The notes: generated from the letters alone by a model not told the origin. Counted from the first letter of the stretch, positions 17,729-41,808 are shown. The stretch: DNA of 64,000 bases from Psilocybe cubensis (GCA_017499595.2 CM039009.1:310001-374000); one strand, 5' to 3'. Translations and numbers: made by a program.

Positions 17729-18366
17729 TTACATTGTACGGCTGCCAAGTGTTTCCGCAATGTGGCGCAGGTCAAGGTCCTTCGTGCGTCCTTTGTAAAA
17801 AAACACCGACAAGTTTCTGAGAATGCAGGTCTGTCGACTGTCTAGCTTCAGCCTCTTCAGCGTAGCGTTGGAAATGAATGCGTTTGATGAACTTGATCCA
17901 CGGTGCGTCAATCGAAACTCCTCCAAACAATGTCCGCCTATTTTAAGCAAATCCATCAAATCCCCCTCGTTCACATCAAAACACGACAATTTCAGCACTC
18001 TGAGCTTTTGTGCTCTATGGGCTATGAACGCGCCGATGCTGGACATATGGGGACCACTTCCGATTCCAACCCCTAGTGTCAAGTCGAGTGTGTCGAGCGC
18101 TGGGCAGCACATATGGTTTAACAACCATCGGCAGTTTCCAGGGGATCCCAGGTAGGCAGTAAAAGAAGAAAGACGAGTCAAGGTGACTGGGACGTGAACA
18201 AAGGCTGATGCATAAACGCCTGGCTCCTCTGAATTGGTATACACAATTCCTTCCACTTCCGTAAACGTAAACATCTTGACAAATTCCAAGATAGTCTGTT
18301 CGTGTATGGTAGCCTTTCGATATGGCGCTGAGTGACTATGACTATTGACGACAATTACCCGGCCTG
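17729..18366 (-). pseudogene. 3' part of the F-box/LRR gene split by the transposon nest
   Basis: LRR-like segments (CPALDTLDL, LRVLKLS, LEEFRL). Reads in frame with 41275-41808 once the four insertions are removed. Confidence 0.85.
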
Positions 18367-19464
18367 TATGGCTGTCCGTTTGCACATTTAATACCAATCA
18401 TTAATCTTTTTGTCCCATACATATAAAGGACATTTTTACACAATGCGGATTATATATATTGGTGTCCCGATCATAGAGAACTAGCTTCCGAAGATAGAGG
18501 AAATCATCCCAATCATTGTATTTACAGGACCTTCAGCTTTAATGAAAGGTACGGACATATATGCATCTATCCCCTACATAGGAAATCTTATACCATACTT
18601 TGAAACCACCTCCCCATATATCTAACATTTTTTCCGAAGATATAGAGTCGTTGAGATGACCATCTTGCGTGCCGTCACTGCCGAATCCGTGTGGGAATTA
18701 TGTTGGTACCCCGCTTTGGGGTGGATAGCTACTCGTGGAGCAGCTAGGCGAGTGTTTTAAGTTCACAATATGGATTTAAAATTTCACGATTGACAAAAAA
18801 AACACCAAACCTGTGCGTATAGCTGACACTGAATAGATTGACTACCTATAACCTCATTTTCAGGTGTATTTAACCTTAACCAAGCTTAACACATCCGCTA
18901 CTAGCTGTCATCACAGCGCTTGGCTCAGAAAAAACACGAAATAATGCTGTATTCAGCTTACATTGTAGCATTCACAATCGGTTAGTATTTGAAACTTTGT
19001 CAGTGCTTACTCTGCCAGTGTCAAGGTGAAAAAACAGCAATGTGCTGTGATTTGTTTGGCTGATTGCCGATATTTGTCGAATTCGCACGAAGGCAAGCTT
19101 GCCTCGGCATAAAAAAATGCCGAAAATCGCCTGTATATCTTCGGGACGACGACAGGTAAAATCTAAAATTGCCGGAACCAGTAGATATATGTGGGGGAGC
19201 AAAAAATGTATGAAAGGGTATGAGTTTTCTATGTAAGGGATTCTAATATATATATGTGGGCTCCAAAACTATATGTATGGTACTCAAAGTTGTACCTAAG
19301 GTTACAATATACAAATGTGTGGATATGGGATCTTTATGATTGGAAGCAATTTTTCTATCTTCGGACACCATAAGATATACTTATCGGAAGACTTAGTCCA
19401 AGACTTCTAAGTATGGGACATAAAGATTAATGATTGGTATTAAATGTGCAAACGAACAGCCATA
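18367..19464. mobile_element. Non-autonomous TIR element 1, IS3EU-like (1098 bp)
   Basis: ~54-bp near-perfect TIR starting tatggctgtccgtttgcacatttaatacca. 6-bp TSD ggcctg (18361-18366, 19465-19470). TAY..RTA ends with a 6-bp TSD are the described hallmark of IS3EU. Confidence 0.85.
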
Positions 19465-19500
19465 GGCCTGTGGTCTGAATTTGGTGCAACCTTGGTGCAG

Positions 19501-20406
19501 TATGGCTGTCCGTTTGCACATTTAATACCAAAGTATAAACTTCTTTCCCCATACATATAAATCACAATTTTTCTTGAACCCAACTACATACCTTGGTGTC
19601 CCGGTTATAGAGAGATAATTTCCGAGCATAGAGGAAATTATCCCGGTCATTGTATTTGCATGCCCTTCAGTTTGAATGGGAGCTGCACACATAAGGGTAT
19701 GCTATCCATACATAAAAAAACTCAGTACCATAGTTTGTGACCCTCTCCGCATGTACCTCAACTTTTGTCCGAAGATATAGAATGCAATTTTCTGTCTGCA
19801 ACCTCAACTTAGGCCTTTTTAAGCCTTAGCACGGTGACTGGGCTGGTCAAAGCACTCGTCTCAAACTATGAAGACAACCTACTTCTGTAATCAGCCTACA
19901 CAGGAATATATTTACTGATTAATTGGATAAATGTGCATCTTTTTAATGTTCAATCAGCGTGTGTCGATAGGCATACAGGCAATGAACTGTAATTTGTGTC
20001 CACATTTGCCAAGATTTGCCGATTCTCACGATGTCTAGGCATGCACGGCATAGACAGAATGCCGAAAAATGACTATATATCTTCGGGATGAAGAAAGGTA
20101 AGAACAATCATACGGGGAACCTTCAGATATAAGTAAGGCAACAAAATATGTATAAAAGGGAGTGTTTTCTCTATGTAAGGGATTGTAATTTGTATATGTG
20201 GGCACCAAAACTATATGTATGGCACTCAAAGTTGCATCTGAGGATGCAACCTATGAATATATGGATACTGGATTTATATGTTCGGAAACCATCTCTCTAT
20301 ATCCAGGACATCAGAGTGTGTATATGGAATTGTGTAGAATTGAGACTTCTATGTATGGAACAAAAAGTTTATTGATTGGTATTAAATGTGCAAACGGACA
20401 GCCATA
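19501..20406. mobile_element. Non-autonomous TIR element 2, IS3EU-like (906 bp), related to element 1
   Basis: Same 30-bp terminal sequence as element 1. 6-bp TSD gtgcag (19495-19500, 20407-20412). Subterminal regions are diverged homologs of those in element 1, in the same orientation. Confidence 0.85.
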
Positions 20407-20816
20407 GTGCAGAGATGGAAACCCTCAGTTGACCATACTGGTTTATGGCTGCCCAAGTGGGGAAATATTCCCCGTAAATATAATTTGCTTATTTTTGAGA
20501 AGTCCGTCAAGAATAAAAAAAATTGTGCGCGGAAACATTTTTTTGGTGCGCAGATTGCTTTCTGGGGTAGTTTGAAGATTCTGTGAACACAATTTGCTGT
20601 GCGGAAACATATGTCAGACATATATTACAAGCCCGAGTACATTATTTCTACCCCAAATTATACTTCATGTGTAAATTACCTGCACGTAAATACATTTTGT
20701 GCGCTGAACAAACCTTGTAATGCGCGGAAAACATTGTTAATTCTCACCCAAAGTGGCCAGCCGCAATTGCCGTGATTATGTAAATTGATCCATTATGGCA
20801 CTTTGGCACTCTCTCA

Positions 20817-21482
20817 CACTGCGGGCGCCGACCGCTGTAAGTTGAACATACAGCAGTAAACTTACATGTCTTATGTAAGTTTAGGTGTATGTTCAACTTA
20901 CAGCACATGTGTCAGGAAAACAAACATTTAACAAAGACATATTGTGTTTGGTGGCTGTATGCCGACCAAACACAATTACTGTAAGTAGCCTGTAAATAGA
21001 ATAAACACCTAAATTACACAAATTATCTTTGTCCGGTGTTAGTACAACATACACATTTTCTGTAAGTTGTACAAACAGCACTTACTGTAAGTAAAAATTA
21101 CACACAAAGAAAACAATTTGTGTATGTTAGACTTACACAAGTTTTTCAATTCATTTAATGGTGTAAGTATAACATCCAGAAATTGTTTTCTTTGTGTGTA
21201 ATTTTTACTTACAGTAAGTGCTGTTTGTACAACTTACAGAAAATGTGTATGTTGTACTAACACCGGACAAAGACAATTTGTGTAATTTAGGTGTTTATTC
21301 TATTTACAGGCCACTTACAGTAATTGTGTTTGGTCGGCATACAGCCACCAAATACAATATGTCTTTGTTAAATGTTTGTTTTCTCAACACATGTGCTGTA
21401 AGTTGAACATACACCTAAACTTACATAAGACATGTAAGTTTACTGCTGTATGTTCAACTTACAGTGGTCGGCGCCTGCAGTG
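20817..21482. mobile_element. CAC..GTG (CACTA/CMC-type) foldback MITE, 666 bp
   Basis: Ends cactgcgggcgcc / ggcgcctgcagtg. Near-identical ~300-bp inverted arms around a ~60-bp spacer. 4-bp TSD ctca (20813-20816, 21483-21486), confirmed against the uninterrupted opposite TIR of element 3. Confidence 0.85.
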
Positions 21483-22592
21483 CTCATGGAGTTAAAGCTC
21501 CGACTGAAGGCATAACTTAGAGTTGGAATTTCAATACAAGGGTCGTTTTCCTGTACAGCTATTTATGAAGTACTATTGGTCAGTAATTACACTTTTATTC
21601 ATTAATCACTGTCTTATCATGACTTTATAATCTTATTTATACATGCTTAGCTTCACAGACGTGCAATATACAGGCAAAGATGTCTGATTGATCTTTTTCC
21701 CACAATATATGCAGTTTTCATATAGTCCCAGGGCTGTCGGAGATGGTGCACAAGCTGTATCACCAATGGGGAGCTTGTAAAAGCACCAGATGGGTGTCAT
21801 CATATAACACTTAACCCAAAACTTGTTGGTACCTTACCCTACAGAATGGTAATAGCAAGACACTTGTTGCGCAGGACAGTCGGAGCTTTAACTCCATGAG
21901 AGTGTGCCAAAGTGCCATAATGGATCTATGGTGAGTCTAGTCCTGGCGTAGTGGAAGTCACACGCGAAGTTTGGGTGCAAAAATGTAATATTTTTGTCGC
22001 CACATCTCTTTTGCGTGGGGACACCCAGACTGACACGTGAAGTCTCGGCAAGGGTGTGTGCCCAGGCTCAAGCCGGAACAGGTGAGTGTATATACAAAGT
22101 AAACTGAGTAAAAAACGAGAATGAAAAAAACAAGACACAAGCAAAGAAAGAACAAAAAAGAAATGGGAAGTGGTAAGGGTGGGGAAGCAAAAAACAAGCT
22201 CTAGGCAGAGCCTAACGAGCTGTGTGAGTAAGAAGAGAGATATAAAACGAAGTCTAATGAACCTAACGAGCTGTGTGAGTAAGAAGAGAGATGTGAAGAC
22301 ATGAAGAGAAAACGAGATCTATATACAAGCTGGAGAACAAAGGCCTTTGAAAAGCTGCGAGGCGAAATCTAATCTGATCAACGTGCCACACGCAACGCAA
22401 GAGATCCTTCCCTCTCATAGACCCGGATCAAATGAGTTTGATCTCCTCATCTATGGTGAGTCCAGTCCTAGTGTAGTGGAAGTCACACGTGAAGTTTGGG
22501 TGCAAAAATGTAATATTTTTGTTGCCACATCTCTTTCGCGTGGGGACAGCCAGACCGACACGTGAAGTCTCGGCAAGGGTGTGTGCCCAGGC

Positions 22593-23726
22593 TCAAGCCA
22601 CCGGGATAGCCCAGGGGAGAGCCAGCGGATCGGGAACTGGAGAAGGCACAAGGGCCAAATGGAGACAAAAAGAAAGATGGAGTGTGCGGTCTGGAGGGGT
22701 GTCGATGTACAGTTTGTAACAGTCGCTGCGCCAGCGGCCCAAAAGTTGAATCTCAAAATCCGAGTATCCTGCGCAGGCGGCGGAAGTAGCAGCGCCGCAC
22801 CGAAAGCTATGACCCGAATACTTGGACTCATTGACCCCAACAGCAGCCAGGCGGTTTTTAAGGGTGGAAATGAAAACCTGCCGTGACAATAGTGTGCCAG
22901 AAGCATCCGCAAAGAGTGGGGCTGTGGGTGCACGTGGGTCTGCAAGGAATAGTGCTCTAAGAGCTGTCATAGGACACGTAAGAGAGCCGCTAGGCGCCCG
23001 TGCAATGAGTATCGTAACACCAGAACGGAAGGGGTTAGTCTTGGATGCAGGGAGAGTAAGACAGAGGTGGGTAGGGTTATTGATGGAAGGGACAAACTCG
23101 ACGGAGGATCGGGAGAGATGAGTAACAGGGTTGAATTTGGTATTATTTGGGACTGTAAACTCTCCGCAACGCAAGAAACCCGCCCATGTAAGTTTAATAG
23201 CAGCGTCAAAGTTCAAATTGTCGAGGAAGGCAAGGTTTCCAGCAGCAGAGGAGAGTCGCTGAAGAATGCTGAGGGTGATAGGGAGCTTGGGGACACGATG
23301 GTCGCCGTAGACCATTTTGATTCCACGAAAGACGTGCTGTGTAGTGGGCGAAGTAATGCATTTGGGGGAGAGTCCAGCGTCAACATGCAAGGAACGAACA
23401 CCGGACAAGTAGGATTTAATTATTGTATACTTGAGCCCTCTATCTGCAAGGGAGGCCATCCATTCGGCGATGGCAATGGGATTGGCGGGGAGGAATACAC
23501 CGGGCTTTGCTTGGTATTTTGGGTTGAGGGTGACAAAGTCAAGATAACTTTTTTGGGCTGATGAATAGGTTTTGCGAGTGCTGGCAGCGAGGCCGTGCCA
23601 GAGGTAGAACGCGGCTCTACGAGAGAACTCAGAGTGCGCTTTATACCAGTGATCTGGGACTTCATTGATGAGGAGCTTCTTTCGAGTGTCGGCCGCAGAA
23701 GGAAGAGACGGCTGTACTGAAAACAA
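22593..23726 (-). CDS. Tyrosine recombinase of the Ngaro-type element (mutated)
   Basis: Motifs YLSGVRSLH, GFLRCGE, SKTNPF, YSGHSFRCGAAT and IQLLGRWRSDCYKLY. Overlaps the RT/RH ORF at 23420-23726. Confidence 0.9.
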   Translation of the reverse strand: MFSVQPSLPSAADTRKKLLINEVPDHWYKAHSEFSRRAAFYLWHGLAASTRKTYSSAQKSYLDFVTLNPKYQAKPGVFLPANPIAIAEWMASLADRGLKYTIIKSYLSGVRSLHVDAGLSPKCITSPTTQHVFRGIKMVYGDHRVPKLPITLSILQRLSSAAGNLAFLDNLNFDAAIKLTWAGFLRCGEFTVPNNTKFNPVTHLSRSSVEFVPSINNPTHLCLTLPASKTNPFRSGVTILIARAPSGSLTCPMTALRALFLADPRAPTAPLFADASGTLLSRQVFISTLKNRLAAVGVNESKYSGHSFRCGAATSAACAGYSDFEIQLLGRWRSDCYKLYIDTPPDRTLHLSFCLHLALVPSPVPDPLALPWAIPVA

Positions 23727-25528
23727 GAAGCAGCGTCAGCAATAGCATTGGCACTGGTCAGAATCCAGACACAAGAAAAAGAGAAATTTAAGTGTGCCGC
23801 CAACATGAAAATCATCCGCACGGTGGACATAGCGGGAATTGACCGCCCAGTTCCCAAAGAAAGCCATTCCACAATAGCCTCATTGTCGACGTGAAAAATG
23901 ACATGACAACCAAACCAGAGGTCGCCCCAACGGAGGATTGCGTGAAGCACTGCTAAAGCCTCCTTAAATTGAATATCGCGCCCGCGGAAATGACGAGGAC
24001 AGCGAGCAGAAAACCAAAGGTCCTCAAAATGCCCCCCCATACCCTTAGTCCCACTGGCGTCTGTGTAAATAGACACACTAGGGTGGGGCGGTTGCAGAAT
24101 GTGTATGCCGTTCCAAGGCATGCAAAAAACAGTCCACCAGTGCAGGTTGGCTCGCACCCCTCGTGACACATGGCGTTGCTGAAATGGTGAAGAGAATTTC
24201 ATAGAGAAATCGATAATGCGGCGAATAAATGTGCGCGAATAAGGAATGACTTGCGAAGCAAATTGCAGGAATCCTACCAACTCCTGAACTTCCCGAAGTG
24301 TAGCAAGAGTCTTTGTACTCCAAGAGCAAAGTAAGTCGCGGAGAAAGGCAAGTTTGACGGGTGGAAGGCAGGCTTCCATGAGCAATGAGTTGAGTTCAAT
24401 CCCAAGAAATTCAATCAATGTAGACAGCCACATGGTTTTTGCGTCCTGAAACTCCAAGCCAAGACAGCAACCGAGGCCCATGACCCACTCCACCGCCTGA
24501 AGGCATAGCGACCTAGGCATAGAGCTACCAAAATTAAGAAAAAAGTTGTCCAAGTAATGACACAATTGAGCAGGTATATGGCGCTGGATAATCCAGTGTA
24601 GTGCCTCTGCAAAAAGATTGAAAATGTAGGGCGCAGAGCGCAAGCCAAAAGTGAGCACCGTGCAATAGTAGAAAAGACCCTTCCAAGAAAAACCCAAGTG
24701 ATGCCAGTTGGCAGGGCGGATGGGTACATGGCGGAAAGCATCTTTCAAGTCTAATTTTGCCATAAAAGAGCCTGGACCAGAGCGTGTAAGATCTTCCACT
24801 GCGCGCTCAAACATGTCGTAATGGATATGTGCCTCAGAGTCCGCAATGCCGTCATTGATTGAAGATCCCGATGGATAAGACAAGTGATTGATTAATCGGC
24901 GCTTACCAGGGTTGTGTTTCTTGGAGACGGCGCCTAACGGAGAGCAGAAAAAGTCCAGCAGTGGAGGTGTCGGGAACGGGCCGTGAACTTGAGCATTATC
25001 CACCAGCTTAGCAACCGCAGCGTCCATGAAAGCTGAGTCTTCAAATGCGGAGCACAAGTTAGAGCATGAGTGCTCCATGTTGGGCCCGACAAATCCAATA
25101 TCTGCGCCATGCTCAACGATGTTAAGAAGTGACAAGACAAAGGTGCGGTCAGGATAATCATGGAGGAAAAAAGACTAGGATTGCAGCACAAGCGGGGTTG
25201 ACACTCTTGAATGAGAAAAAGAATTATCATAGGAAGACAGTAAATTACAACGTGGATCTGTATTAGGGCGAATAGGTGGGAGGCATGAAGCCGGTGGGAA
25301 AGAATTATGATGAGGAATACAAGAATAAAATTCAGATGAAGTGAAATTGACAGAAGCAGGGGAAAGAAGAGAGCTGGGGTGAGATGATGGTGTTGAATCA
25401 ACAGAATTAAACTTTGAAATAGAAGGAAGATTGGTTTGAGGATGGACTACAGAATGGGAAAGAAGAGGAATAGAAGTAGAGCAAGCCTCCGAATAAAGAT
25501 TAAAAGCAAAGGAAGAAGAAACAGACAA
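23420..25528 (-). pseudogene. Reverse transcriptase/RNase H of the Ngaro-type element
   Basis: KLDLKDAFRH, LTFGLRSAP, YLDN (degenerate YxDD), IYTDASG and HVDN motifs. In-frame stop at 25175-25177 in the N-terminal part. Confidence 0.9.
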
Positions 25529-25552
25529 AGATTGGCTCGCCCCACCGAGTGC

Positions 25553-26722
25553 CTACCCGCTACGTGTGCAATCGGTCTTACCATGATCATCTGCGCCACA
25601 AGATTGGTACTTGTGAAGACGTCCAGCTGGGCAGGGGAGAGTTTTGCAGGTACCAGGATTGAAATTGAAACAGGTTTGCTGCGCCACCGGGGTCTTTGTA
25701 GAGAACAAAGATGATGAACCCAAGGTGCCTGAAGTGCTCGAACGACCTTTAGGCGCCGCCGCTACAGCAGTGCCACGGGCGTGAGGTGTGAGGCAAATGG
25801 CTTGCAGAGCAGCGTTGGATACCATCCACCCAGAGAAATCACCATGTGACATTTCCTTGGATCTGCGCAAAAAGAAACGCTGATGATATGCAAGGACGGC
25901 ATGCCAGTGATATGTTCTACTGAACGTGGTGATTTGTGCACAGTAGTACGCAAAGGCGGAAATTACTTCCCTGGTCGCCAACGCAGACCCGGATGACGCA
26001 GCGTACTGGCCCAAGATATTGAAGTAAACAAAGAGGGGTTCGAGCAAGGACTGCAGCGTAGGATAATCCTTAGCTGTGCCCAAACGGGGCTTCACAGTGA
26101 TGTTGTCGTTTTCAAGTACAATGGAAGACTGCGCATCGTGGACCTTCTTGTGTGCAGACAAGTCCAATTTGTTCAAGTTGAGAGGGTGGAACATGAACTG
26201 GACAATTTCCAGGATGGTGGCACGAGGAACATTGGGGAAAAGATCAAGAAGAGACTCACTGGTAGCAGAGCTCGACGCCGCATTGCTGATGAAAGGCGGG
26301 ATTTGCACCGATGCAGCAACAGGAGCCACAGGCGGGGGTGGAGGGGGCGTTGGAACCTTGACACGAGGCGAGCCAATCAGACCGCGATTGAGCAAAATCT
26401 CAAACTGCTCGTTGGTGAGTATAATCCCCCCTAGGCCTATGCCTGAAGAGGATGGAACACCTTCCCCAGAGTTCAATCTAGACATGCTAGAGCTCAATGA
26501 TGAAAGGGAAGAAGGGGATGATGGTGTAGGAGATGAAAGGGAGACGCTCAGGAGGGCGGTTACAAGACTTGTTTCGTCGTCCATTGACTGAACGGAGGGA
26601 GAAGAGGGGACCGAGTCGGTGTCGCTCTCAGAAGATGAGGACTGAACAGCGAGTGCACCGGTGAGGAAACGGCCGCGAGCGTCTTGAAGACGAGCCGGAA
26701 TGGCTAAAGGAGCAAAAAACAA
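25553..26722 (-). CDS. Gag-like ORF1 of the Ngaro-type element
   Basis: 389-aa ORF with YHWHAVLAYH and a C-terminal CFNFN..C...C...H....C....H....C zinc-finger-like region, typical of DIRS-group ORF1. Confidence 0.75.
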   Translation of the reverse strand: MFFAPLAIPARLQDARGRFLTGALAVQSSSSESDTDSVPSSPSVQSMDDETSLVTALLSVSLSSPTPSSPSSLSSLSSSMSRLNSGEGVPSSSGIGLGGIILTNEQFEILLNRGLIGSPRVKVPTPPPPPPVAPVAASVQIPPFISNAASSSATSESLLDLFPNVPRATILEIVQFMFHPLNLNKLDLSAHKKVHDAQSSIVLENDNITVKPRLGTAKDYPTLQSLLEPLFVYFNILGQYAASSGSALATREVISAFAYYCAQITTFSRTYHWHAVLAYHQRFFLRRSKEMSHGDFSGWMVSNAALQAICLTPHARGTAVAAAPKGRSSTSGTLGSSSLFSTKTPVAQQTCFNFNPGTCKTLPCPAGRLHKYQSCGADDHGKTDCTRSG

Positions 26723-27599
26723 GCTCTAGGCAGAGCCTAACGAGCTGTGTAAGTAAAAAGAGAGATGTAAAACAAAGTCTAACGAACCTAACAAGCTGTG
26801 TGAGTAAGAAGAGAGATGTGAAGACATGAAGAGAAAACGAGATCTATATACGAGCTGGAGAACAAAGGCCTTTGAAAAGCTGCGAGGCAAAATCTAATCT
26901 GATCAACGCGCCGCACGCAACGCGAGAGATTGTTCCATCTCATAGACCCGGATCAAACAAGTTTGATCTCCTCATCAATTTACATAATCACGGCAATTGC
27001 GGCTGGCCACTTTGGGCAAGAATTAACAATGTTTTCCGCCCATTACAAGGTTTGTTCAGCGCACAAAATGTATTTACGCGCAGGTAATTTACACATGAAG
27101 TATAATTTGGGGCAGAAATAATGTACTCGGGCTTGTAAATTATGTCTCAAATATGTTTCCGCGCAGCAAATTGTGTTCACAGAATCTTCAAACTACCCCA
27201 GAAAGCAATCTGCACACCAAACAAATGTTTCCATGCACAACTTTTTTTTATTCTTGACGGACTTCTCAATACTAAGCAAATTATATTTACGGGGAATATT
27301 TCCCCACTTGGGCAGCCATACTGGTTGGCTGCACGGAGTGTTAAGCTGCAAAGTTCGGGAAATTTGCCCAAATTCAGGACCTTTCAGGTAGGCATGCTAC
27401 AATGTTGAATAAGAAATGGATTAGTGGAGCTTACATTGTACTGCATAATGAGGCTTCAATAAATTCATCGAATCATCGAACGCCGAAATTCCCGCAAAGT
27501 CAACTCACAATGTGCCACACTACGTGGGCTCATTGAATACCGGTGTATCTGCACAGTAGGCCAATTTCGGATATGCATCACAGAAAATTGGTATGCGGA

Positions 27600-28060
27600 T
27601 GTGGTTGGGACGTTGAAATGGGTCGGAATCTTCGAATCGGGGTCGGGATAGTGGATATGGTCGGGACGTTGAAATGGGGTCGGAATGAATGGAATGCGGG
27701 GCGTCAGGTTGTTGGAATGCGGGGTTGGGATGAATGGGTTGTCGGCCTATTGGAATTGGGTTGGGATGCTGGAATGCGGGGCGTCGGGTTGTTGGAATTG
27801 GGTCGGTATGTTGGAATGCGGGGCGTCGGGTTGTTGGAATGCGGGGTTGGGATGAATGGGTGTTGGCCTATTGGTATGGGTCGGGATGTTGGAATGCGGG
27901 TCGGGATGTTGGAATGCGGGTCGGGATTGATGCCAGCATCGAAATATTTGAATAGGAGTCGGGGTATTGAAATGGGGTCGGAATGTTGGGTTGGGATGAA
28001 CGGGTTGTCAGGATGTGTTGGCATAAATGGGGTCAGAACTTTGCAACCAGAGGTGGGATA
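27600..28060. repeat. G-rich degenerate minisatellite (ggaatgcgggg / gttggaattggg / gtcgggatg units) in the left subterminal region of the KDZ element
   Basis: Repeated ggaatgcgggg and gggtcggga motifs. The overlapping ORFs are low-complexity artefacts. Confidence 0.8.
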
Positions 28061-28387
28061 TTAAAATACTACTATACTAAATGCCGTCGACGGCTTTTGG
28101 ATTTCAGTTTACCATCTCAAAAGTAGTAGGATCAATGCTATCACACTAGTACATGAGAAAGGAGAAAGCATACAAATGTTATTCAAAAAGTACACAAGCT
28201 GTATTCAAAATATAGAACACATGTATGTACAGATTAGTCAAAAAGATCCAGCTCCAAGTTGCCCGCAAAGTGCTCCGACGTGAATTGTGGTTGAGCAGAA
28301 TCCTCGTCAACGTCCATTGAATAGTCCGATTCTGCAAATGAGTTACTAATAGTCAGAAACTTTTTGAATATGATTTAAGCTAGAATA

Positions 28388-32700: not shown

Positions 32701-33728
32701 CTTTGTTTGCCGACTGTGGTCGGAGATATTGAGGCATGTCCCGTACATCTGCCTCTGCTTCGCTTACTTCTTCTTCATCATTACAGTCTTGAATATTGTC
32801 TAATGAATGAGGATCTTCTCGGCACCTGTTTAGGTATGCCTCAAACTCTTCATCTGTAGGGCCATTTGGATCCAAATTCTCTGGGTCTTCCTCAAGATTT
32901 TCCATCTGAATATCAATACCGTTTGTGTATTCTGTTGACTGCTCAATGGGCGCTTGTTTCCATTTCAATTGTTGTAGTTGATTTTGTTCCTCCTCGTCCT
33001 TGGTTTCTTCAATATTTTCAAGATAATTAATCTGGAAGTTCAATGAAGAACATATAGAATCTCCTATATGATGGAGTATAAGGATATAGGTACCAGTCTC
33101 CCATAGCTGAGCCGGCCGGAAGTGTGTGCCTGTCCAACATTCTACTTTGTGCAAAGGATTGACGCGGTGAGTATGCCGCATACACTTTCTGCAAATAAGG
33201 GATGGTAAGCTACAATCCTTGCACCGCCATACCGCAATCAAATTGCTATCACAACTAGAGCAAATAGGAGGTTCAGAATCCTCAGAAATATTGGGTGCTT
33301 CTTGGCTCAGTAATGCCCCTAGTAAATCGTCTACACGCAAAACAAATTCGTTAATATAGTCTCGCTGTGTCTATCCACATCATGCTGGTGAGATTACTTT
33401 GTAAAATAATAAAATATGTTCATACCTTCCAAATTTTTGGCACTACATTTTCATCATGGTGAGTTGAAGGTAGACTGTTTTCATCCTCACTAAATCCAGC
33501 ATCCTCGTTGAATGTACCATGCTCCTGTTCTTCTAAACCTATTGGCTTCTTCTTATGAGGTCAATTTGTGGCACTCAAAGAAACCTTCACTAGCTCTGAA
33601 ACCACCTTTCCTGCTCGCGTGGTTCTGGTTTGATTCTTGTATGTAACAGCATCTGCTGCATTAGCATCATTTTTGTGTAGTGCCTTCTTCCTGGATTTCC
33701 TGTTACTTGATGTTCGTTGAGATGGCAT
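29800..33728 (-). pseudogene. CxC2-domain KDZ (Kyakuja-Dileera-Zisupton) transposase, inactivated
   Basis: CxC2-like C..C..RCKDC..C..C..H..PLH..WTG and HTNGVH..YCVC motifs. KDZ core: CPACPQPG, FVADGNFK, GIACAQHGC, YDIVC, FHVHAH, GEILESLW. Several in-frame stops; 3' end approximate. Confidence 0.88.
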
Positions 33729-34039
33729 AATAGAAACAAGAGGAGAAATGATCCCTATCTTGGTTAGACATTGCTATATCTTAGGGTGGCTTATTCCAAC
33801 TGCATAGTTTATCCTTACCTAATATGCATATTCTCTACTTGTGGGCTGGTATAAAGGGAGCAGGGTTCTTGACGGTATTTTTTACCATTCATTCTTCCCC
33901 CACATTTATTGGTTTTAGGGCAAATCTGATTGTTGCAACCCAAGCCTGAACATATTCACAAGGTTAGTCTGTTTTTGTGCTATTTGACTATGTGAAGAAC
34001 TTACTGCATGAATATTTTACATATTCTATTTGATATAGC

Positions 34040-36413
34040 ATGGCCAGTACTGAAAATCCTGTACTCGAAGACATTTTTCAAACCCATGATAGATTAGTAA
34101 GGGTGTACGATCGTCAAGAGCGTGAAATAATTGAAAAATACAAAGATAATTACACCAAAGCTACAACTAATCTTGATCGTAAGCAGGTGGTTTGTGAAAT
34201 ACTACCTGCTCTTTTCAATCACTGGAGTAAAAGTAGGACTGTAAGCCATAGTAGAGATTTTATGCAGGAGGAGGCAAAGGTACGTGCATTGGCTGTGGTT
34301 GGAATAATTTACTTTTATTGAGACAAGTGTTGGGCCCGACCATACAACAGGTATAATAACAATCTTGGTTATAGCTTAGTCGGAACTAATATTGTATATT
34401 ATAGAAACTACTGGCTTGGATTCGAAATAATTGGAGAGGAGAGCGACTTACGAAGGCGGCTACAATGGGCAAAAAATTGAAGTGTACAACTGTACTCTGG
34501 TATAATAGAAGAGAGGAGGTCTACAAGGAAATTGCCAGTATTCTAGGAATAGAATCAGCAGGAGTCGGGACACCAGGCATTTTTGAAAACCGCATGAAAG
34601 CAATGAGTAACATTATTTCCCGAATGTCCGACCGTGAAAAAAGACAGCTTGATGTGGAAGCATCAAATTATGCATCGGTGGTTTATTCCGATGAGGACAA
34701 GCGCAAGTAAGTGTTTAATTGAAATACAAGATCAATCTACTACTTAATTCTTGTTTAGAAAAGCAAAGAAGTATGCTTTTAAGAAGCTAGATGAGGCAGC
34801 AAATCAACAATGGGCAGAAATGGGATTAATGAGTATCACATTTGTTTGTCAAATTAATGAATCTGGCCAACTATTAGTCCAAGTGTGCGTTTTCAATTAC
34901 AAGTCCACTTTCTAGTTGCTCATTTTATGATTCCGACCATCTCCGACTGATGTAATATCCGACTCCGACTGATTGAATAACTCCGACAAACTTTATGACT
35001 CCGACACTCTCTGACTTGTATAGTCATGATCAAGTAGCCAGCATTATTGGAGTTTGCTCAACTTTATTTGAAGAGCAAAAGCCAGATGAAGTCACACAAA
35101 TGAAGCGGTTGATCAGTACTTATGTCCGTGGATTATTAAATGCTAAAGAAAGAGCAACATCTGGAACGCAAATAATGGCAAAATTGGACTTATTTATACT
35201 TGATCAAGATGCCGATGGATTCCCAATCTTACCTCAAGACTTTGATGTCTCCAAGGTCAATAGAAAAGATTTAGAGTCTCTGCTCCGCCTTTATCTTGGT
35301 CAAAACTATAGTAAGCATAAGACTTTTGAGTTCAATTGGTGTGCTAAATTTGTAATAGAACTTGCAACATACGGTCGCACTTTGCAAACTCCTTACAAGG
35401 CTATTGAACTTAATCAATCCAAATTTATCTCTCCTGAGTACTTACCGCCCCGCTTCAAGCTAAAGCGGCCCCGATTTCTTGATCTTGAAGACTTGCGCAA
35501 GTTATTTACACATCTCCGATCACGTCAAGAAACATTTCCTCTCAGTCAAGTATTTCGCTTTCGCAAAGTTAAAAAGGGGAGAAAAGGAGATGACCTGGAA
35601 GATACATGGTATCCTGATGAGACTCGCAACATTGATGCAGAAAGGAACAAATGTCGGCCTCCACCACCAAAAAAACCTAAAAAATCCAAGACAGCTCCGA
35701 TGCGGATCGAGGAGATGGAGGGTGCATCGAGTTTGATCACATTTGATTCCACTCAGGAAGCTATGCCAACTGGGACTGCAACACCACCTGGTAATACAAT
35801 TTTAGATTCCATGATTGACCCAGCTTTACGGAGTGAATCCACTGCCAGTCATAATGTTCTTCCGGATCCAAAGGCTACTACTAGTATACAAATTCCTTCT
35901 GCTGAAAATTCTCAACCCCAACCCCAACCCCGACCTCGTAAACCACCTACCACCCCGGCTGAGATTGCACAGCATCAACAAAACCTTCAAGATTTGGATA
36001 ATGCATGGCGGATTTCCAATGAGCTTCTTGGATTGCAGTTGCCAACTTCAATTGAACCTGCTCCTGCGCACGCACCTGCATCCGCACCCGCACCCGCACC
36101 CGCACCACCTGCACCCACACCCGCACATGCACACACACACATACACACACCTGCACATGCACCCGCATACGCACCCGCACATGCACACACACCCGCACAC
36201 GCACCACCCGCACCTGCACACACACCCGCACACGCACCACCCGCACCTGCACCTGCACCCGCACATGCACATGCACATGCACATGCACATGCACCCACAT
36301 CCACATCCACATCCACACCCATACCCACACCCGCCCCTCTGGCAAATAGAAGAAAAAGAAAGGAAGTAGAGGAAACATTGATTATTGAGGGTAAAAGGAC
36401 CCGCCGCCCTTGA
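34040..36413 (+). CDS. KDZ-element accessory protein (multi-exon) with a Pro/Ala/His-rich tail and basic NLS-like end
   Basis: ORFs 34040-34321, 34465-34710 and 34995-36413 are linked by GT-AG introns. Transcribed divergently from the transposase; ends NRRKRK...GKRTRRP. Confidence 0.6.
36055..36336 (+). repeat. Coding hexamer microsatellite (GCACCC/GCACAT/ACATCC)n
   Basis: Encodes an (AP)/(AH)/(TS)n tract. Confidence 0.85.
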
Positions 36414-36598
36414 GAGAGAACTAGTTAGTTTTTTGCTATATCAATTAGAGTACTTCTTTTCAAGTAGAAGTTTAGTTATAATAACTTTCATATTTCACAC
36501 TTCAAAAACTCTTGCAAATCCTCAATATTATACAAGAACAAAAAACATAATATATTGAGAGAAAAAAAAATATTTTTAAGAAAAACAAAAACCCCGCC

Positions 36599-39415
36599 CT
36601 ACAAGGCATTGGCATCTACAGAGGGTGGCGGGGGCGACAACGGAAGTGCTGGTGGTGTGGTGGGTGGCTGAGGGGGAGTAAAATCAACCGGGGGATTGAG
36701 AGAAGAAGCACCTTTAGCACCATCGACATTTTCCACATTTTCCGTTCCGACGGCCTGAACTCCGTGATCCGCAGCAGGATTGGCGTTGTTGTCAGTGGTG
36801 TGATCGGCAGTGAGATCTATGACGGCATGATTGGTGTTGTGGTCAGAAGCGGGATCGACGTTGTTGTCGGACGCGGGATTGGTGTTCTTGTCGGAAGCGG
36901 AATTGGCGTCATCGTCGGAGTCGGAATTGGTGTGATTGTCGGAAACGGGGTCAATAGCAGAATCGGGATGGTAGTTTGCAGAGGTGCCTGCCTTGTCATC
37001 TGAAGACAAGTCCATCGGAATTGAACCATCCGTCGGACCATCCTCAGCGGCACTCTCCATGTCTTCCACAAACTCCTCAGAAAGATACGCACCATCACTA
37101 TTCATCTGATGCATCTGTATCTCGTCAATGCGGCCTTCAAGAAAGAGAAGGGTATCGTTGGTCCTATCAAGGGAGTCGGAAAGATGCTTGACCTCTGCCT
37201 TCATCTTTCTCATCCCAGCCTCCCACTTTGCTCCAAACGCCGACTGACAATCGACTGCGGCATTTCGATGTCTGCTAACTCGCTCGCATAGGTTGTCGTA
37301 ACTGCGCTTGAGTGAGGTATATGATGCTTTCAAATTGTAAAGCTCCTCCTGAAGATCTTCATTAGTTGTTCTCAGAATGGCCAAGTCGACCTGAGTTGTG
37401 CAACCCATGATTTCCAACTCATTAATCCGCTTTGCAAAGTCGGCAATAGTTGGAATGTCGGTGATGTCAGAGTCTTGCAATTGATGTGGAGGAGTAGCCC
37501 TCTGAACTGTTGTTGAGGGTGCAGGAGTAGGTGTGGATTTTGAAGGGGTGGGTTTTGAAGGAGCAATATTTGATGGACCGGCTTTCAAAGAAGCGGGCTT
37601 TGCAGGAGCGGGGGTTTCAGAGCCAGAGCTAATCTCAAGATAATCAACTTCAAAAATATGAATTTCAATGTACAGATGAGATAAAACTTAATTGAACACA
37701 CCCGATTCCGACGGTTTGGTTGTTTTCTGTATCTCAGTACCAGATTTTTCCTCCTCTGAGGCGTCATCAGTGTCTACCACATCTGCAATAAATGAATAAA
37801 AATGAATATTCAAGAATAGAACAATTAGATAGCACATACATTGTTGAGACTTCACCTGTTTTTTGGGTGGCATGGCCTCCTCGTTGGAGTGAGTAACAGG
37901 TTCCGACTGCTTGCCCTTTGGTCCCCGTTTTGATGCTTTTGCCGCAGAAGCCTTGTTAGCCCAACGACTTTTGGAAACCAACGTACCTCCCCATGTGCAA
38001 CCCTTCTTGTGCTTGCTGCAAAAGGTACAAGCACGTTTTCCTGTGTTGGTGATAATCTCCTGGCACTCCTTGTTGTTATTTTTGAGGCATCGATTGCACT
38101 TTGTGGCTGGAGCCGTCGGAGTTGCTGCCTTGACCGACCTTTTGCGCTTTACCCCTGTCTCCACCCCCGACTCCTCGTTCTCCGATGACTCCTCGTATTT
38201 GGAGCCCGATTTTGGTGGTTGAGGAGGACCTTCTTTAAGCATTCTTTGCAGCTTCAACGCCCTAAACTTGTTTTCAGGGCTATCGGGGCGGTCAAAGTGT
38301 GCCATTGCAACCTCGTGAGCAAATAAACCAACTGACTTTGTTGGAAAGCTTTCCTTTGATGCCTGTTCTTTCGGGACCCGGGGTTTTGACTTTTGATTTG
38401 GTTTGTTGGCATGCGAAGGAGCATGGCGGGATGAAGATTCGGGATTGGGATGGACGGGATGGGACGACGAAGTGGAACGGTTGGAAGTAGCCAGTTCTAG
38501 TAAATATAGAAGTTTTTTAAGAATATTATATACACAACAACAAAGGTACATACCTGCAAGAGCTCTTGAAGCATGGTTTGGCTTCAAGAGCACATTAGAC
38601 AGTGCTACTGAGTCAAAGAAGACCACCACTAAGTTAATACAAATTTAATTTTCAATAATGAGAACAACACTCACAGACTGTAGCCTCAGAGGGCGTCAAC
38701 TTAATCGCAGCAGCTTGGGTGGACACAGTTCCAGCAACAGTACTATTGGTGGGATTGAGGGCCTTTCGATCCCGACCAGAACTGGACTCCGTGGGTCCCC
38801 AATGTGCAACAACGGCAGGTGGGTACTTGCGCCCTAGAGACGAAGTCGACTCAATGTCTGACACCTGACTTGCAGGTGCCTTGCGAGTTGGGGCCGACTG
38901 CGACATGTCGGAAGTACAAGTCGGGGCCGACTGCACAGGAGCACGAGTCGGGGCCGACTGCAAAACATCGGGAGCACGATGGGGCAATCCATTCGACGTT
39001 GGGGTCGGAGTTGCCTCAACGGCATTGGAAGCAATCGAGGTGGAGGTTGCCATTGCACTGGCAACCTCCAATTTTGCCAGCGCATCGCGATGCTTGGGGA
39101 CAAAGGTGGTGTCGTCAAAGTCGCCCGCGGCGTTGGATTTCTTGTAATCCACAACAACCAACCACAGAAACTGTCTGAATTCCTTAAAAATCTCAGGATG
39201 TGTCTGGGCCTTTTTGACACGTAAGACCTCCCTCTGCACCAGGAATTTAGTAATGTATTGCATGAAAAAAAAAAATTCAACGGGCGCACCATGACCTCGT
39301 TCAACTTCCTCATCATCTTTTTTACCTCCCCCCTCTTCACTGCATCCTTGATATCGGCGTCGAGTTGTGCGAGAGCGGCACGAAGAGATTTGGCGGTGCT
39401 GATTTTGAAGGCCAT
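36599..39415 (-). CDS. KDZ-element cargo protein with Zn2Cys6-like cluster and coiled coil (multi-exon)
   Basis: Co-oriented ORFs 38834-39415, 38652-39446, 37688-38629 and 36599-37588 with splice sites between them. Contains CNRC-x7-C-x11-CTFC-x6-C and a heptad region (LRTTNEDLQEELYNLKASY...). Confidence 0.6.
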
Positions 39416-39692
39416 TTCGTATGTATATGCGAGCTTGAAGATGCAAGCTTGTAGCGAGCTGGTAGTAGTGGTGGTAGTGGGAAAAAGGAAAGGTAAGAAA
39501 TGGACAGTGAACCCCCTGTGCTCGATATCGGCTACCTACACAATCACATGATCGTTGAAATTAAATTGGTGGCACGCGTGTCGGATTGATCGCGTAGATG
39601 GATAGCAAAGCTTGGTATTCTTGTCCGACAAATATAAATAGGCTTAAGAATCCGGTGAGTTGCCCATTTGCTATCCTCAAATTTTCCCCAGA

Positions 39693-40262
39693 TATGAGTG
39701 TCCAGAATTCATCACCAAACATTCCGGAAGGCTACGTTGCTATTGATGGCCCGGACAACATCAAGTATGTTGTCCCCCGCTTCATGATCTCCTCATTGGA
39801 GAATGATTTGGCAGCCTTGGGTGCTAAAAAGGATGCCAATGTTGTTACTGCCGACCTGACTCGAGTAAGTCCAATCTAAATATGACTGATTCATGATTAA
39901 CATCCTATTCTAGAAGAATAATTCTAAACAATCGGACGCGTATGTCACCTTGTCAGGTATTTTGCGAGTGCCCCCCGAAAATGTGAGTCGATTCTAGTCA
40001 TGTATACTCTGGGAACTAAAATGGGCTTTAGTCTTTGACCGATAATGAGATGCTCACACTTCATGCCGAGGTGTGTGCTTTGCAGAAGAGTCTTGGCATT
40101 TTGTATCAGGATGCCGCGCATTGGCTCTATATGGCGGAGGTTGCAAAATTGAAGGTGGCGGACGGGGATAGGAGATATCATGCATACATGGATCGATGCA
40201 TGACCAAAACTCTCATCAAGTTGGAAGAAAGGCATACCTTTCGTGAAGATCTTAGAAAGTAA
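39693..40262 (+). CDS. Small hypothetical cargo gene of the KDZ element (multi-exon)
   Basis: MSVQNSSPNIPEGYVAIDGPDNIKYVVPRF..., then GTAAG/GTATG introns, then TLHAEVCALQKSLGILYQDAAHWLYMAEVAKLK. Confidence 0.5.
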
Positions 40263-40471
40263 TGGGCTAGTTTACTGTAGCAATTTTTGATATGAATAAA
40301 TTTTATGTGTCCGACCTAATGTGCACATTAATTGAGTGTATGACCACATTCACACTTGTACCCACACTCGCACTTGCACCCAAACCCAAACTCGCACCCA
40401 CACCCGCACCCATACCCACTCGCACTCGCACCCGCACCCGCACCCACACCCACACCCGAACTCGCACCCGC

Positions 40472-40868
40472 TGTTAGAATCACTCAATCAGGTGATGACG
40501 GAAAAGATACAGTCAGGACTGGAATTGAACCAGTGACTCCCGGCTATATATGCCAATGCTCTACCACTGAGCTACATGACCCATGGGTAGATAGAGAGTT
40601 ATATGTCAACACACCCCCTGAACTCGATATCTAGCCTGTAGTGACTAAGAAGTCCAGACTCCCATAGGGTTTCCGCCCTTGCATGCCCGGTTAGAGGCAA
40701 ATGCAAGCCAACAGGTTTGCTGCTACCATGTTAGAATCACTCAATCAGGTGATGACGGAAAAGATACGGTCAGGACTGGAATTGAACCAGTGACTCCCGG
40801 CTATATATGCCAATGCTCTACCACTGAGCTACATGACCCATGGGTAGATAGAGAGTTATATGTCAACA
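40472..40868 (-). mobile_element. TRIM with tRNA-derived LTRs (Helenus-like), 397 bp
   Basis: Two 140-bp TG..CA LTRs (40472-40611, 40729-40868; 1 mismatch) and a 5-bp TSD cccgc. On the minus strand, PBS tggtagcag follows the 5' LTR and purine tract agggggtg precedes the 3' LTR. Confidence 0.92.
40511..40582 (-). ncRNA. tRNA-like Pol III unit inside the TRIM LTR (second copy at 40768-40839)
   Basis: A box tagctcagtggtagagc, D stem gctc/gagc, T arm actgg-ttcaatt-ccagt. The anticodon loop is degenerate (atatata), so this is not a canonical tRNA. Confidence 0.8.
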
Positions 40869-41274
40869 CCCGCACCCACACCCAAACCCGAACTCGCACC
40901 CGCACTCGCACCCGCACCCAAACCCGAACTCGCACCCACACCCCACCCGCACCCACTCGGACTTGCACCCGCTCGCACTTGCACCCGCATCTGCACTAAC
41001 ACCCACACCAAGTCAAACTTCTGCTCCTCCGACACTGTGCAAATTCCACTAAGTTGAACATTTATTGATACACCCGACCCGCCCATGTGACGGGTACTAG
41101 ACCTCTCCATATTCAAGAATTGCGCAAAGTATAGTACAATGTAAACTACTGTGTATAGTTATGTGATATTCAGTGTATGAATGAATTTATTGAATCCATA
41201 TTATACGATACATTATACCAGTCCACTGTACCATGTTATACAGTACTATGTAGTGTTAGTATGTGGACCTTTGC

Positions 41275-41808
41275 GCTGCAGTTGTGGGCGAGGACAGGGG
41301 AGAAATGAATGTCAAGCTTCTGCCAACGCGCACTGTACTTTTGGATAAAGTCGCATATTGCAATGTGTTCCAGAGACTCTTCAGGCTCGCTTGAAGCCAC
41401 CAGTGAGTCTCTCTCCTTGATTTTCAAGGTGAGAGGTAGGTTTACTGCTCTTTTCACCCAATTCTCCAAGAATTCGATGTGCCGTGTCTTCTCTGTGTCG
41501 GACTTGGATACGGATATGTAGACTGTTGTCCAAAATTGGGAGTTGTTGAGTATAATTTCACGCCAATTCCTACAAACGAGTGCAAGATCCAGCAGTGTGT
41601 GTAGTTCTGCGAATATCGGGGGAAACGGATCCTCGAGGGATATACTATTCTCCAAAGCCAGGAGAAATATATTAATCCAAATTTCAGTAGGAATGGTCCT
41701 CACTAGCTTGATGCTTTTAGCGGAAGGCGTCATATACGGAAGACGGCCGCCGCAACCTGAAGGTACAGAGGTTTTCCTCTGCTTGGGCCCACCCAGTTTC
41801 GCTGTCAT
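41275..41808 (-). pseudogene. 5' part (F-box domain) of the gene split by the transposon nest
   Basis: IPTEIWINIFLLA...LALVCRNWREIILNNSQFWT F-box motif plus WVKRAVNLPLTL. Continues in frame at 27344. Confidence 0.85.

Follow-up and report, generated by a model that had tools for sequence, protein, structure and literature searches.

The bacterial insertion sequences IS911 and IS30 are able to target their own inverted repeats, and among retroelements the repeat layout A1-ORFs-B1-A2-B2 is diagnostic of DIRS-order elements. As for eukaryotic DNA transposons, the IS3EU superfamily is characterized, in the portion of PMC12730594 devoted to it (section 3.1.3), by 6-bp target-site duplications (TSDs), terminal inverted repeats (TIRs) of more than 30 bp and TAYGG..CCRTA ends, and, in PMC10045372, by TA..TA termini and TSDs that are mostly 6 bp. 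Kyakuja, of the KDZ group in Agaricomycotina, has a 7-bp TSD and lacks TIRs, its termini being CA..TG (PMC12730594, section 3.2.1). On the host side, PMC10282164 describes F-box families as expanded and fast-evolving in Agaricomycetes.

In the 64-kb window considered here (the term denotes the whole stretch of DNA that was analysed), a gene of F-box and putative leucine-rich-repeat (LRR) type, with an intronless ORF on the minus strand, is split by four insertions designated A, B, C and D. We hold with high confidence that the locus is a null allele, young and specific to this strain or haplotype, of a fast-evolving and presumably dispensable F-box/LRR gene, which has taken four independent insertions in codons 181-221 of its 430-codon ORF. 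The features, in the order in which the minus strand reads them, are as follows.

41266..41808, minus strand: host piece 1, which opens with the start ATG at 41808 and covers codons 1-181; the copy of D's 7-bp duplication that is kept as host sequence (41266-41272) lies within it
27385..41265, minus strand: insertion D, 13,881 bp, a Kyakuja-like (KDZ) DNA transposon
27378-27384 and 41266-41272: D's 7-bp duplication, GACCTTT
32204-33370, minus strand: CxC2 (PF18803) in D, E=3.7e-16, 59.7 bits against a cut-off of 27
31746-31991, minus strand: KDZ (PF18758) in D, E=1.1e-13, 51.9 bits against a cut-off of 26.6
27321..27377, minus strand: host piece 2, 57 nt, codons 182-200, reading ..AKVLNLGKFPELCSLTLRAANQ
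20444..27320, strand not assigned: insertion C, 6,877 bp, non-autonomous IS3EU-type, 347-nt TIRs (95%)
20438-20443 and 27321-27326: C's 6-bp duplication, CTGGTT
21924..26973, minus strand: retroelement of the DIRS/Ngaro kind nested inside C, 5,050 bp
20817-21482: foldback in C, 666 nt
20407..20437, minus strand: host piece 3, 31 nt
19501..20406, plus strand: insertion B, 906 bp, non-autonomous IS3EU-type, TIRs of about 130 nt (78%)
19495-19500 and 20407-20412: B's 6-bp duplication, GTGCAG
19465..19494, minus strand: host piece 4, 30 nt
18367..19464, plus strand: insertion A, 1,098 bp, non-autonomous IS3EU-type, 60-nt TIRs (93%)
18361-18366 and 19465-19470: A's 6-bp duplication, GGCCTG
17729..18360, minus strand: host piece 5, C-terminal 209 aa and stop, a repeated strand-helix (LRR-like) region

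Insertions A, B and C begin TATGGCTG and end CAGCCATA, such that all six ends read TATGGCTG, and these TATGG..CCATA termini, together with perfect 6-bp duplications around each element and inverted repeats whose length ranges from 60 to 347 nt, are features shared with IS3EU. They differ in holding no transposase. Neither A nor B holds an ORF of at least 100 aa; the nine ORFs scanned in C, all of which lie within the nested retroelement, gave no transposase family, and C outside that retroelement has no ORF of at least 100 aa. Judged by structure alone, and without an IS3-like DDE transposase, A, B and C are thus classed as non-autonomous members of the IS3EU superfamily. C is an unusual member: its TIRs are 347 nt long, and it holds both a foldback and a nested retroelement. 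The available parts of the two IS3EU descriptions (PMC12730594, PMC10045372) offer no parallel to three copies lying 30-31 bp apart.

The retroelement within C carries a reverse transcriptase (RVT_1 at 23420-25174, minus strand, E=1.6e-10) with 977 relatives at E<=0.001 among 8000 candidates scored, the best at 69% identity. A Phage_integrase match at 22593-23735 on the minus strand is weak and far below threshold (E=0.26), and no rve integrase was found in the retroelement ORFs scanned. The element has split direct repeats, in which 26711-26979 equals 22186-22454 and 22449-22599 equals 21924-22074, and its borders have only ATC in common, with no target duplication. It is the reverse transcriptase ORF, the faint tyrosine-recombinase signal and the split repeats that lead us to place it, as a probable member, in the DIRS/Ngaro kind. 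With DIRS-order (Ngaro/PAT-like) elements it shares a reverse transcriptase ORF followed by a weak-recombinase ORF, the split direct repeats and no more than 3 nt common at the borders; some of its relatives are likewise annotated as recombinase fusions, the name 'Integrase/recombinase xerD' appearing on 6 of the 120 reverse transcriptase relatives listed. It differs from them in that its recombinase match falls so far short of threshold. C-family copies without the retroelement exist, as evidenced by a joint from 21923 to 26974 (3 ambiguous letters) in X10, one of four sequencing runs from other strains.

Insertion D ends in CAGGTAGG...GTATGTG, that is, in CA..TG, and repeat comparisons revealed neither an inverted repeat linking its ends nor a long terminal repeat. 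Because these features occur together with a 7-bp duplication and a KDZ relic, we consider D to be Kyakuja-like and probably not of the Zisupton or Dileera type, an assignment drawn from its ends, since the transposase fragment is short (81 aa, profile positions 52-126 of 217). The KDZ transposase domain and the CxC2 cysteine cluster are further points of agreement with Kyakuja. D differs in that its transposase is reduced to fragments and in that a scan of 39 ORFs within it returned no TET/JBP domain; approximately 3 kb of additional minus-strand ORFs (36599-39560) gave no family match.

A preliminary description of the locus had proposed that five minus-strand pieces join into an ORF with no internal stop, and our recomputation of that join does return 1251 nt encoding 416 aa and a stop. 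Its junctions at A, B and C were placed exactly, in agreement with the 6-bp direct repeats that flank each element and with the empty sites of other strains. Its fourth junction, which removed 27345-41274, was wrong: the true insertion D is 27385-41265, and the ORF must be corrected from 416 to 430 codons (1293 nt, 430 aa and stop). The minus-strand frame upstream of 27344 continues ..KVLNLGKFPELC|SLTLRAANQ, and the continuation on the KVLNLGKFPELC side fits an xPxLxxLxL motif found at that place in 11 of 11 aligned homologues, which were picked from 150 listed proteins for giving a single HSP across the junctions. Colinear alignment with homologues, which the preliminary description had put forward as a check, is obtained across the junctions only with D corrected; the earlier join leaves a gap of approximately 14-16 residues at that point against all 11. 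In blastp against the library protein P0003 (548 aa), the correction raises the score from 268 to 291 bits and removes a 14-aa gap, and the 430-aa product then aligns in a single HSP (40% identity, E=1e-97) that crosses all four junctions and spans residue 10 to its C-terminal end. The hexamer GCTGCA, considered as a target duplication of D, was rejected; it is a direct repeat inside the host gene with copies 42 nt apart, and for this reason the earlier join stayed in frame even as it dropped 14 genuine codons and retained only 27321-27344 of host piece 2.

The product of the corrected ORF resembles FBXL-type F-box proteins such as SKP2, FBXL17 and TIR1. Host piece 1 encodes an F-box-like domain above the Pfam cut-off (PF12937, E=1.6e-07, 31.4 bits against 24.3) and has 518 library relatives at E<=0.001, of which the best, P0003 (8.6e-22), is 40% identical. 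At the other end, a 222-aa C-terminal ORF has no Pfam match, and no LRR family exceeds threshold by sequence. The AlphaFold2 model of the C-terminal region (pLDDT 73, pTM 0.77) predicts alternating strands and helices, and the nearest solved folds to that prediction are F-box LRR proteins: Foldseek ranks SKP2, FBXL17 and TIR1 highest, at TM-scores of 0.4-0.56, and six of the top ten rows are of this kind, although the matches are weak (best E-value 3.9e-3, none at E<=0.001). The protein thus shares with the FBXL type an N-terminal F-box-like domain and predicted C-terminal strand-helix repeats. It differs in its sub-threshold LRR signal, and binding of Skp1 or of a substrate is putative.

All four elements are multi-copy, and in other strains the read depth over them is many times the single-copy depth, such that one may ask whether repeat copies were mis-stitched into this locus during assembly. 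We consider this most improbable. Mis-stitching does not produce four perfect target duplications (of 6, 6, 6 and 7 bp, here accompanied by class-typical termini), nor does it explain why host segments of 30, 31 and 57 nt carry on a single frame and can be aligned with homologues.

The contigs and reads of four other-strain runs (X5, X7, X9 and X10) were compared with the window up to position 28500. Alleles lacking the insertions, which the preliminary description had proposed to look for, are present in these strains at the exact bases for A, B and C. The A-empty joint (18360 to 19465, skipping 1104) occurs in three of the four runs (X5, X7 and X10); the joints empty of B (19494 to 20407, skipping 912) and of C (20435 to 27319, skipping 6883) occur in all four, the latter being equivalent to 20437 to 27321, as 8 letters fit either side. 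In each case the length skipped is that of the element plus 6, and host piece 3 is bridged on both sides in all four runs. In X9 the A-empty joint is missing, perhaps because A is older and shared, or else because a contig breaks there. In X5 and X7, the three joints stand at one depth each, 86.7 and 11, which is the depth of the contig that also holds the flank (16500-18360 in X5, 17308-18360 in X7), and among the raw reads of X10 the joints for A, B and C are supported by 16, 15 and 12 reads, respectively. The X5 host contig extends 1196 nt past 18360, and the depth across 27728-28128 in this run is only 20.2 against 86.7, from which it follows that the host contig does not run on into D; the depth in X7 likewise leaves no room for it. 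We infer from these two runs that D, too, is absent in other strains.

The empty alleles belong to diverged haplotypes. The X5 contig differs from the window by approximately 1.6%, with 30 mismatched letters and 4 gaps over 1861 nt, and in the last 632 bp there are at least 7 differences between the window and the empty alleles, which argues that the latter are other alleles and not products of excision. The seven differences listed comprise four non-synonymous, two synonymous and one stop/Gln change, and do not point to purifying selection one way or the other. The last of these is the stop codon: where the window has TAA at 17729-17731, each of the four runs has CAA, and the ORF of the other strains would therefore extend 12 codons further if the sequence downstream in the window is followed. 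As such, the window allele may already be decaying, its stop being a C-to-T difference from CAA.

The preliminary description had also set clean host pieces against decayed inserts, and the second half of that contrast is borne out in part, in that the KDZ domain survives as a fragment and the ORFs of the retroelement are in shifted frames. It had been speculated that the split gene is still used, being rebuilt by precise excision of the four elements or by gene conversion from an empty allele, with selection keeping the pieces intact. It is true that the pieces are without internal stop or frameshift and that the species does have empty alleles. However, random substitution simulated at 0.5-1.6% left the ORF open in 52-81% of simulations, so in a young allele a clean ORF is expected by chance and no mechanism of restoration is needed; the empty alleles are separate haplotypes that differ even at the stop codon; four precise excisions would be required; and the listed differences carry no mark of selection. 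Furthermore, PMC2909936 describes bacterial IS3-family transposition as a circle copy-out that leaves the donor in place, and if IS3EU elements were to move in like manner, A, B and C would never excise, though the term 'copy-out' does not occur in the IS3EU paper (PMC10045372). Restoration is therefore unsupported, and we regard it as very unlikely. The difference between decayed inserts and clean host is itself expected, because a non-autonomous copy that moves brings along the damage it had already accumulated.

The young null allele instead took shape through four transposition events, each with its own target-site duplication, into a 430-codon intronless ORF of an agaricomycete-type fungus. 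Two of these brought in A and B, non-autonomous IS3EU elements that are diverged; a third brought in C, a long-TIR IS3EU element bearing a nested, probable tyrosine-recombinase retroelement, and another the Kyakuja/KDZ element D of 13.9 kb. The gene would have stayed uninterrupted in other strains of the species, and the pieces seen here would be clean because the time elapsed has been too short for decay.

The four sites had been put within about 90 bp; the measured span is 125 bp of empty site, and the local insertion hotspot proposed on that basis stands, with four independent insertions, each bearing its own duplication, from at least two unrelated superfamilies. This makes the locus an ordinary insertion polymorphism, though one whose hotspot is unusually tight. 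For the three IS3EU elements, the duplications begin at empty-site positions 1, 31 and 62, in steps of 30 and 31 bp, and D lies 51 bp from C. No further copy of any of the four elements occurs elsewhere in the window. With the gene dead, later neutral insertions had 1.3 kb of its own sequence or, depending on their order, as much as 22.8 kb of inserted DNA in which to land. The repeated independent hits in a tiny target, with element ends close together, recall known insertion hotspots and nests and the behaviour of IS911 and IS30; here, in distinction to those, two unrelated eukaryotic superfamilies share the same 125 bp, and the insertions sit in host DNA between elements (each at most 57 bp from its neighbour) rather than within them. 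It is probably not by chance that the insertions cluster: either this spot or the flanks of resident elements would be preferred as targets on a fine scale.

One form that such a preference might take is that an IS3EU transposase, bound to one end of an IS3EU copy already in place, steers the next insertion into the flank of that copy, giving a stepwise pile-up. The 30- and 31-bp spacing of the duplications is in keeping with this, as is the common orientation of A and B, which are yet only approximately 75% identical and hence derive from different source copies. IS3EU ends also abut elsewhere: X10 contains a joint from 20406 to 19501 with a single 'C' between the ends (15 reads), and X5 and X7 each have one contig joining 20407 to 20444, at depths of 83.6 and 8.2 (locus contigs, 86.7 and 11). 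A parallel with bacterial IS911 and IS30 may be drawn as well. Against this, D belongs to an unrelated superfamily and still landed 51 bp from C, and a transposase-specific mechanism cannot, for that reason, account for the whole cluster; no neighbour recurs beside other copies of the C family (at 20444, the loose-end consensus agreement is 0.5-0.65); and the pattern is known from one locus. We thus consider it doubtful that in this fungus IS3EU elements, which are relatives of bacterial IS3, prefer resident IS3EU ends, either some 30 bp outside them, as at this locus, or abutted one base apart, as in X10 and X5/X7. If this were true, the IS3EU family would build local arrays and repeatedly strike the same gene, and would provide a eukaryotic counterpart of IS911 and IS30 insertion beside their own inverted repeats.

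We conclude that the F-box-like gene split over 17729-41808 on the minus strand is a young null allele produced by serial transposon hits while an intact allele persists in the species, and that this structure is real and well-bounded. As the preliminary description had claimed, its five minus-strand pieces join into 1251 nt encoding 416 aa and a stop with zero internal stops, and three of its four insertions (A, B and C) are exactly as it described them. The fourth, D, had been given a misplaced junction and is entered here as corrected.

Insertions in the host gene (window positions)
A: 18367-19464, flanks GGCCTG
B: 19501-20406, flanks GTGCAG
C: 20444-27320, flanks CTGGTT
Retroelement nested in C: 21924-26973, minus strand, 5,050 bp
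D: 27385-41265, 13,881 bp, 7-bp flanking repeat GACCTTT

The D junction was judged against 11 of the 150 homologous proteins listed, the criterion being a single BLAST alignment spanning the junctions. In all 11, some 14-16 residues ending in the motif xPxLxxLxL lie opposite a gap in the 416-aa product, and that gap coincides exactly with the D junction. The minus-strand frame continued past 27344 reads ..KVLNLGKFPELC/SLTLRAANQ, which is the missing motif; at the same position P0003 (548 aa), the best library homologue of the N-terminal piece, has ..ILPLGDFPELQSLTLRAA.. The true D insertion starts with CA and ends with TG, without an inverted repeat. The GCTGCA that had been mistaken for a duplication is the host gene's own direct repeat, and because its copies lie 42 nt apart the wrong join lost 14 codons yet kept the frame. 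An early model of D, with a 6-bp or 3-bp duplication and a GCAAAG inverted repeat, was displaced by the frame and homologue evidence. The corrected ORF comprises 1293 nt (430 aa and a stop). Its product scores 291 bits against P0003 (E=1e-97, 40% identity, a single alignment across all four junctions), where the 416-aa product had scored 268, and the motif region is aligned in 11/11 homologues. Colinearity thus holds across all four junctions for the 430-aa product, whereas the 416-aa join fails at D. The error was revealed solely by alignment to homologues and carries a warning of method, in that a short host direct repeat can mimic a target duplication and a wrong in-frame join still leaves an open frame.

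A, B and C have common termini, six of six ends being TATGGCTG.../...CAGCCATA. In section 3.1.3 of PMC12730594, IS3EU elements are given 6-bp duplications, inverted repeats of >30 bp and ends TAYGG..CCRTA, and a passage of PMC10045372 gives them TA..TA termini and duplications of usually 6 bp; on structure, A, B and C fit this superfamily, the published termini being compared from text alone. The three are non-autonomous, as none of them encodes a transposase. A and B stand in the same orientation and are ~75% identical over 282 and 433 nt, and are therefore copies from different sources, not the outcome of local duplication; C has in common with them only the first 9-11 nt, and its inverted repeats measure 347 nt (95%). 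No further copies of A, B, C or D were found within the 64-kb window. Two end-like 11-mers, at 3128-3138 (minus strand) and 17243-17253 (plus strand), are without a partner end, and a TATGGGCGC..GCGCCCATA pair at 42010-42129 is without matching 6-bp flanks; these were taken as chance. C also holds a foldback at 20817-21482, a perfect-hairpin of 322 nt (97% complementary, with 22 nt separating the arms), which is polymorphic among copies of the family, a joint from 20809 to 21481 being present in X5, X9 and X10 (X5, X7 and X9 denote contigs, and X10 raw reads, from sequencing runs of other strains).

The retroelement inside C has a reverse transcriptase ORF (RVT_1, E=1.6e-10), followed by an ORF with a faint tyrosine-recombinase match (E=0.26), as well as split direct repeats and borders without a real duplication. 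Among 8000 candidates scored, 977 relatives of the reverse transcriptase reach E<=0.001; most belong to Agaricomycetes, and the name 'Integrase/recombinase xerD' is given to 6 of the 120 listed. Reads of X10 join 21923 to 26974, and the C family therefore includes copies that lack the retroelement.

A fragment of a KDZ transposase (PF18758, E=1.1e-13) is encoded in D, as is a CxC2 cluster (E=3.7e-16). Section 3.2.1 of PMC12730594 describes Kyakuja elements as having 7-bp duplications and CA..TG termini and as lacking inverted repeats, and the ends of D agree with this description on each point. A Pfam scan of 30 further D ORFs gave no match in 29; in the protein atlas, 30342-31118 had a weak KDZ lead (0.86) and 37688-38644 no usable one. 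Three consecutive minus-strand ORFs at 36599-39560, whose frames are shifted (362, 318 and 302 aa), match no Pfam family. Also observed were two C-rich repeat blocks of 12-nt period (CACCCGCACCC-like) at 36031-36344 and 40335-41022, and tandem G-rich repeats at 27588-27927, close to the left end. The unmatched ORFs and repeat blocks of D may be Kyakuja cargo and subterminal repeats, or may belong to a further nested element.

The host N-terminal piece is complete in four runs (possibly from the source), and 27-35% of its words occur in five further runs, which indicates diverged strains. Positions 16500-28500 of the window, a stretch that leaves the right end of D outside, were compared with the contigs of X5, X7 and X9 and the raw reads of X10. 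The empty-site alleles that the preliminary description had proposed to look for, i.e. the gene without the insertion, are present in other strains at the predicted bases for A in 3/4 runs, for B in 4/4 and for C in 4/4.

Empty-site joints in other strains
18360 to 19465 (A): skips 1104 nt; depth 86.7 in X5, 11 in X7, none in X9; 16 reads in X10
19494 to 20407 (B): skips 912 nt; depth 86.7 in X5, 11 in X7, 39.2 in X9; 15 reads in X10
20435 to 27319 (C, 8 ambiguous letters): skips 6883 nt; depth 86.7 in X5, 11 in X7, 39.2 in X9; 12 reads in X10

No A-empty joint was found in X9, though B and C are empty there, and X9 has a 290-nt contig identical to the interior of A (18706-18995). It may be that A is present in X9 and is the oldest of the four insertions, or the missing joint may reflect no more than a break in the X9 contig. 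In X5, the host contig (depth 86.7) extends 1196 nt past 18360, while the depth over 27728-28128 is only 20.2; given this difference the host contig is not continued into D. This points indirectly to the absence of D from X5, and X7 shows the same pattern. In X10, an alternative base occurs in about half of the reads at 17862 (9/16, 12/23), 18026 and 18191, and the gene is therefore carried as two haplotypes, as in a dikaryon.

The clean frame of the host pieces had suggested in the preliminary description that the split gene might be rebuilt by excision or by conversion from an empty allele. This idea is unsupported. Over 1861 nt, 30 letters and 4 gaps (~1.6%) separate the X5 contig from the window sequence, and in simulations of the 1293-nt ORF (5000 trials) random substitution at 0.5-1.6% leaves the frame open in 81-52% of cases, the figure at 5% substitution still being 13%. 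Among the best supported differences, which are those listed, at least 7 lie within 17729-18360: 4 non-synonymous, 2 synonymous and 1 at the stop codon. The latter (17729-17731) is TAA in the window and CAA (Gln) in X5, X7, X9 and X10, and CAA would lengthen the ORF by 12 codons if the frame continued into the window's own downstream sequence. Non-autonomous and defective copies bring their damage along when they move, which makes the inserts seem older than the host pieces. Nothing in the data calls for either selection on the pieces or a repair mechanism.

The other reading offered earlier, a local insertion hotspot, holds: the event is of an ordinary kind, the hotspot unusually tight. All four insertions fall inside 125 bp (duplications at 1-6, 31-36, 62-67 and 119-125 in empty-site coordinates, within codons 181-221), and the surrounding 41 kb of host sequence contains no other member of their families. 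Such a cluster is not chance; by our own rough estimate, which assumes that each later hit could have fallen at any point of a dead 1.3-kb gene, the probability that three later hits each lie within ~60 bp of a previous hit is (120/1300)^3, or <1e-3. A target resembling the IS3EU end was rejected, there being zero matches with <=2 mismatches to either 11-nt end in the 239-nt zone surrounding the sites; host-only sequence (41.2 kb) has 15 and 11 such matches to the two ends. For a 159-nt stretch of the empty site the folding energy is -25.6 kcal/mol, whereas 200 mononucleotide shuffles give -17.6 +/- 3.1 (z=-2.6), and by this single post-hoc test, which is too weak to build upon, the predicted DNA structure of the target is only mildly unusual. 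The preference of a single transposase cannot explain the whole cluster, since D belongs to a different superfamily.

The IS3EU sites at the locus are spaced 30 and 31 bp apart. Abutted IS3EU ends occur elsewhere in other strains. In X10, a joint from 20406 to 19501 (15 reads) brings a B-family right end, a single 'C' and a B-family left end together. In X5 and X7, the joint is from 20407 to 20444, where a right end of the A/B family is followed by one base and then by a left end of the C family; each run has one such contig, with depths (83.6 in X5, 8.2 in X7) close to those of the locus contigs (86.7 and 11). Ends one base apart could represent tandem dimers or adjacent insertions, and are reminiscent of the junctions in circles or dimers of bacterial IS3-type elements. 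Together with the 30/31-bp spacing, these abutted ends hint at a mutual attraction between IS3EU ends. Bacterial IS3-family elements can target their own ends. Their circles or tandem dimers with abutted ends are treated in passages of PMC2909936 and in the abstracts of PMC3299598 and PMC9333248. At listing level, no paper was found on IS3EU target preference or on IS3EU in mushrooms. Should the tight spacing be due to genuine targeting, the locus would indicate a candidate property of IS3EU transposases.

With respect to the gene itself, the N-terminal piece contains an F-box-like domain exceeding the Pfam cut-off and has 518 relatives at E<=0.001 in an exhaustive search of a representative library, the best at 40% identity and none above it; word-index protein searches for longer relatives of the N-terminal and C-terminal pieces gave none at E<=0.001. 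The C-terminal 209 aa were modelled from a 9-sequence alignment (pLDDT 73, pTM 0.77) as strands alternating with helices, and the nearest solved folds by Foldseek are the LRR parts of SKP2, FBXL17 and TIR1 (E=3.9e-3 and weaker, with zero rows at E<=0.001). The gene's surroundings are rich in lineage-expanded families; neighbourhood ORFs also include TPR-repeat (777 aa), DUF6535, WD40-fragment and MAGE-homology ORFs.

ORFs around the gene
3142-4635, plus strand, second intronless F-box-like ORF, 497 aa
5610-6155, minus strand, MAGE-homology ORF
43080-44444, minus strand, LRR-like ORF, 454 aa
52085-54418, plus strand, TPR-repeat ORF, 777 aa
55602-57302, plus strand, DUF6535 ORF
60867-61454, minus strand, WD40 fragment

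The locus provides well-bounded examples of poorly documented classes, namely non-autonomous IS3EU elements, a Kyakuja-like element whose two ends are defined, and a putative tyrosine-recombinase retroelement carried inside a DNA transposon. F-box families are strongly expanded and fast-evolving in mushroom-forming fungi, as reported in passages of PMC10282164, and the gene is a natural example of transposon-made presence/absence variation within them, one strain's allele having been destroyed stepwise while an intact allele still segregates.
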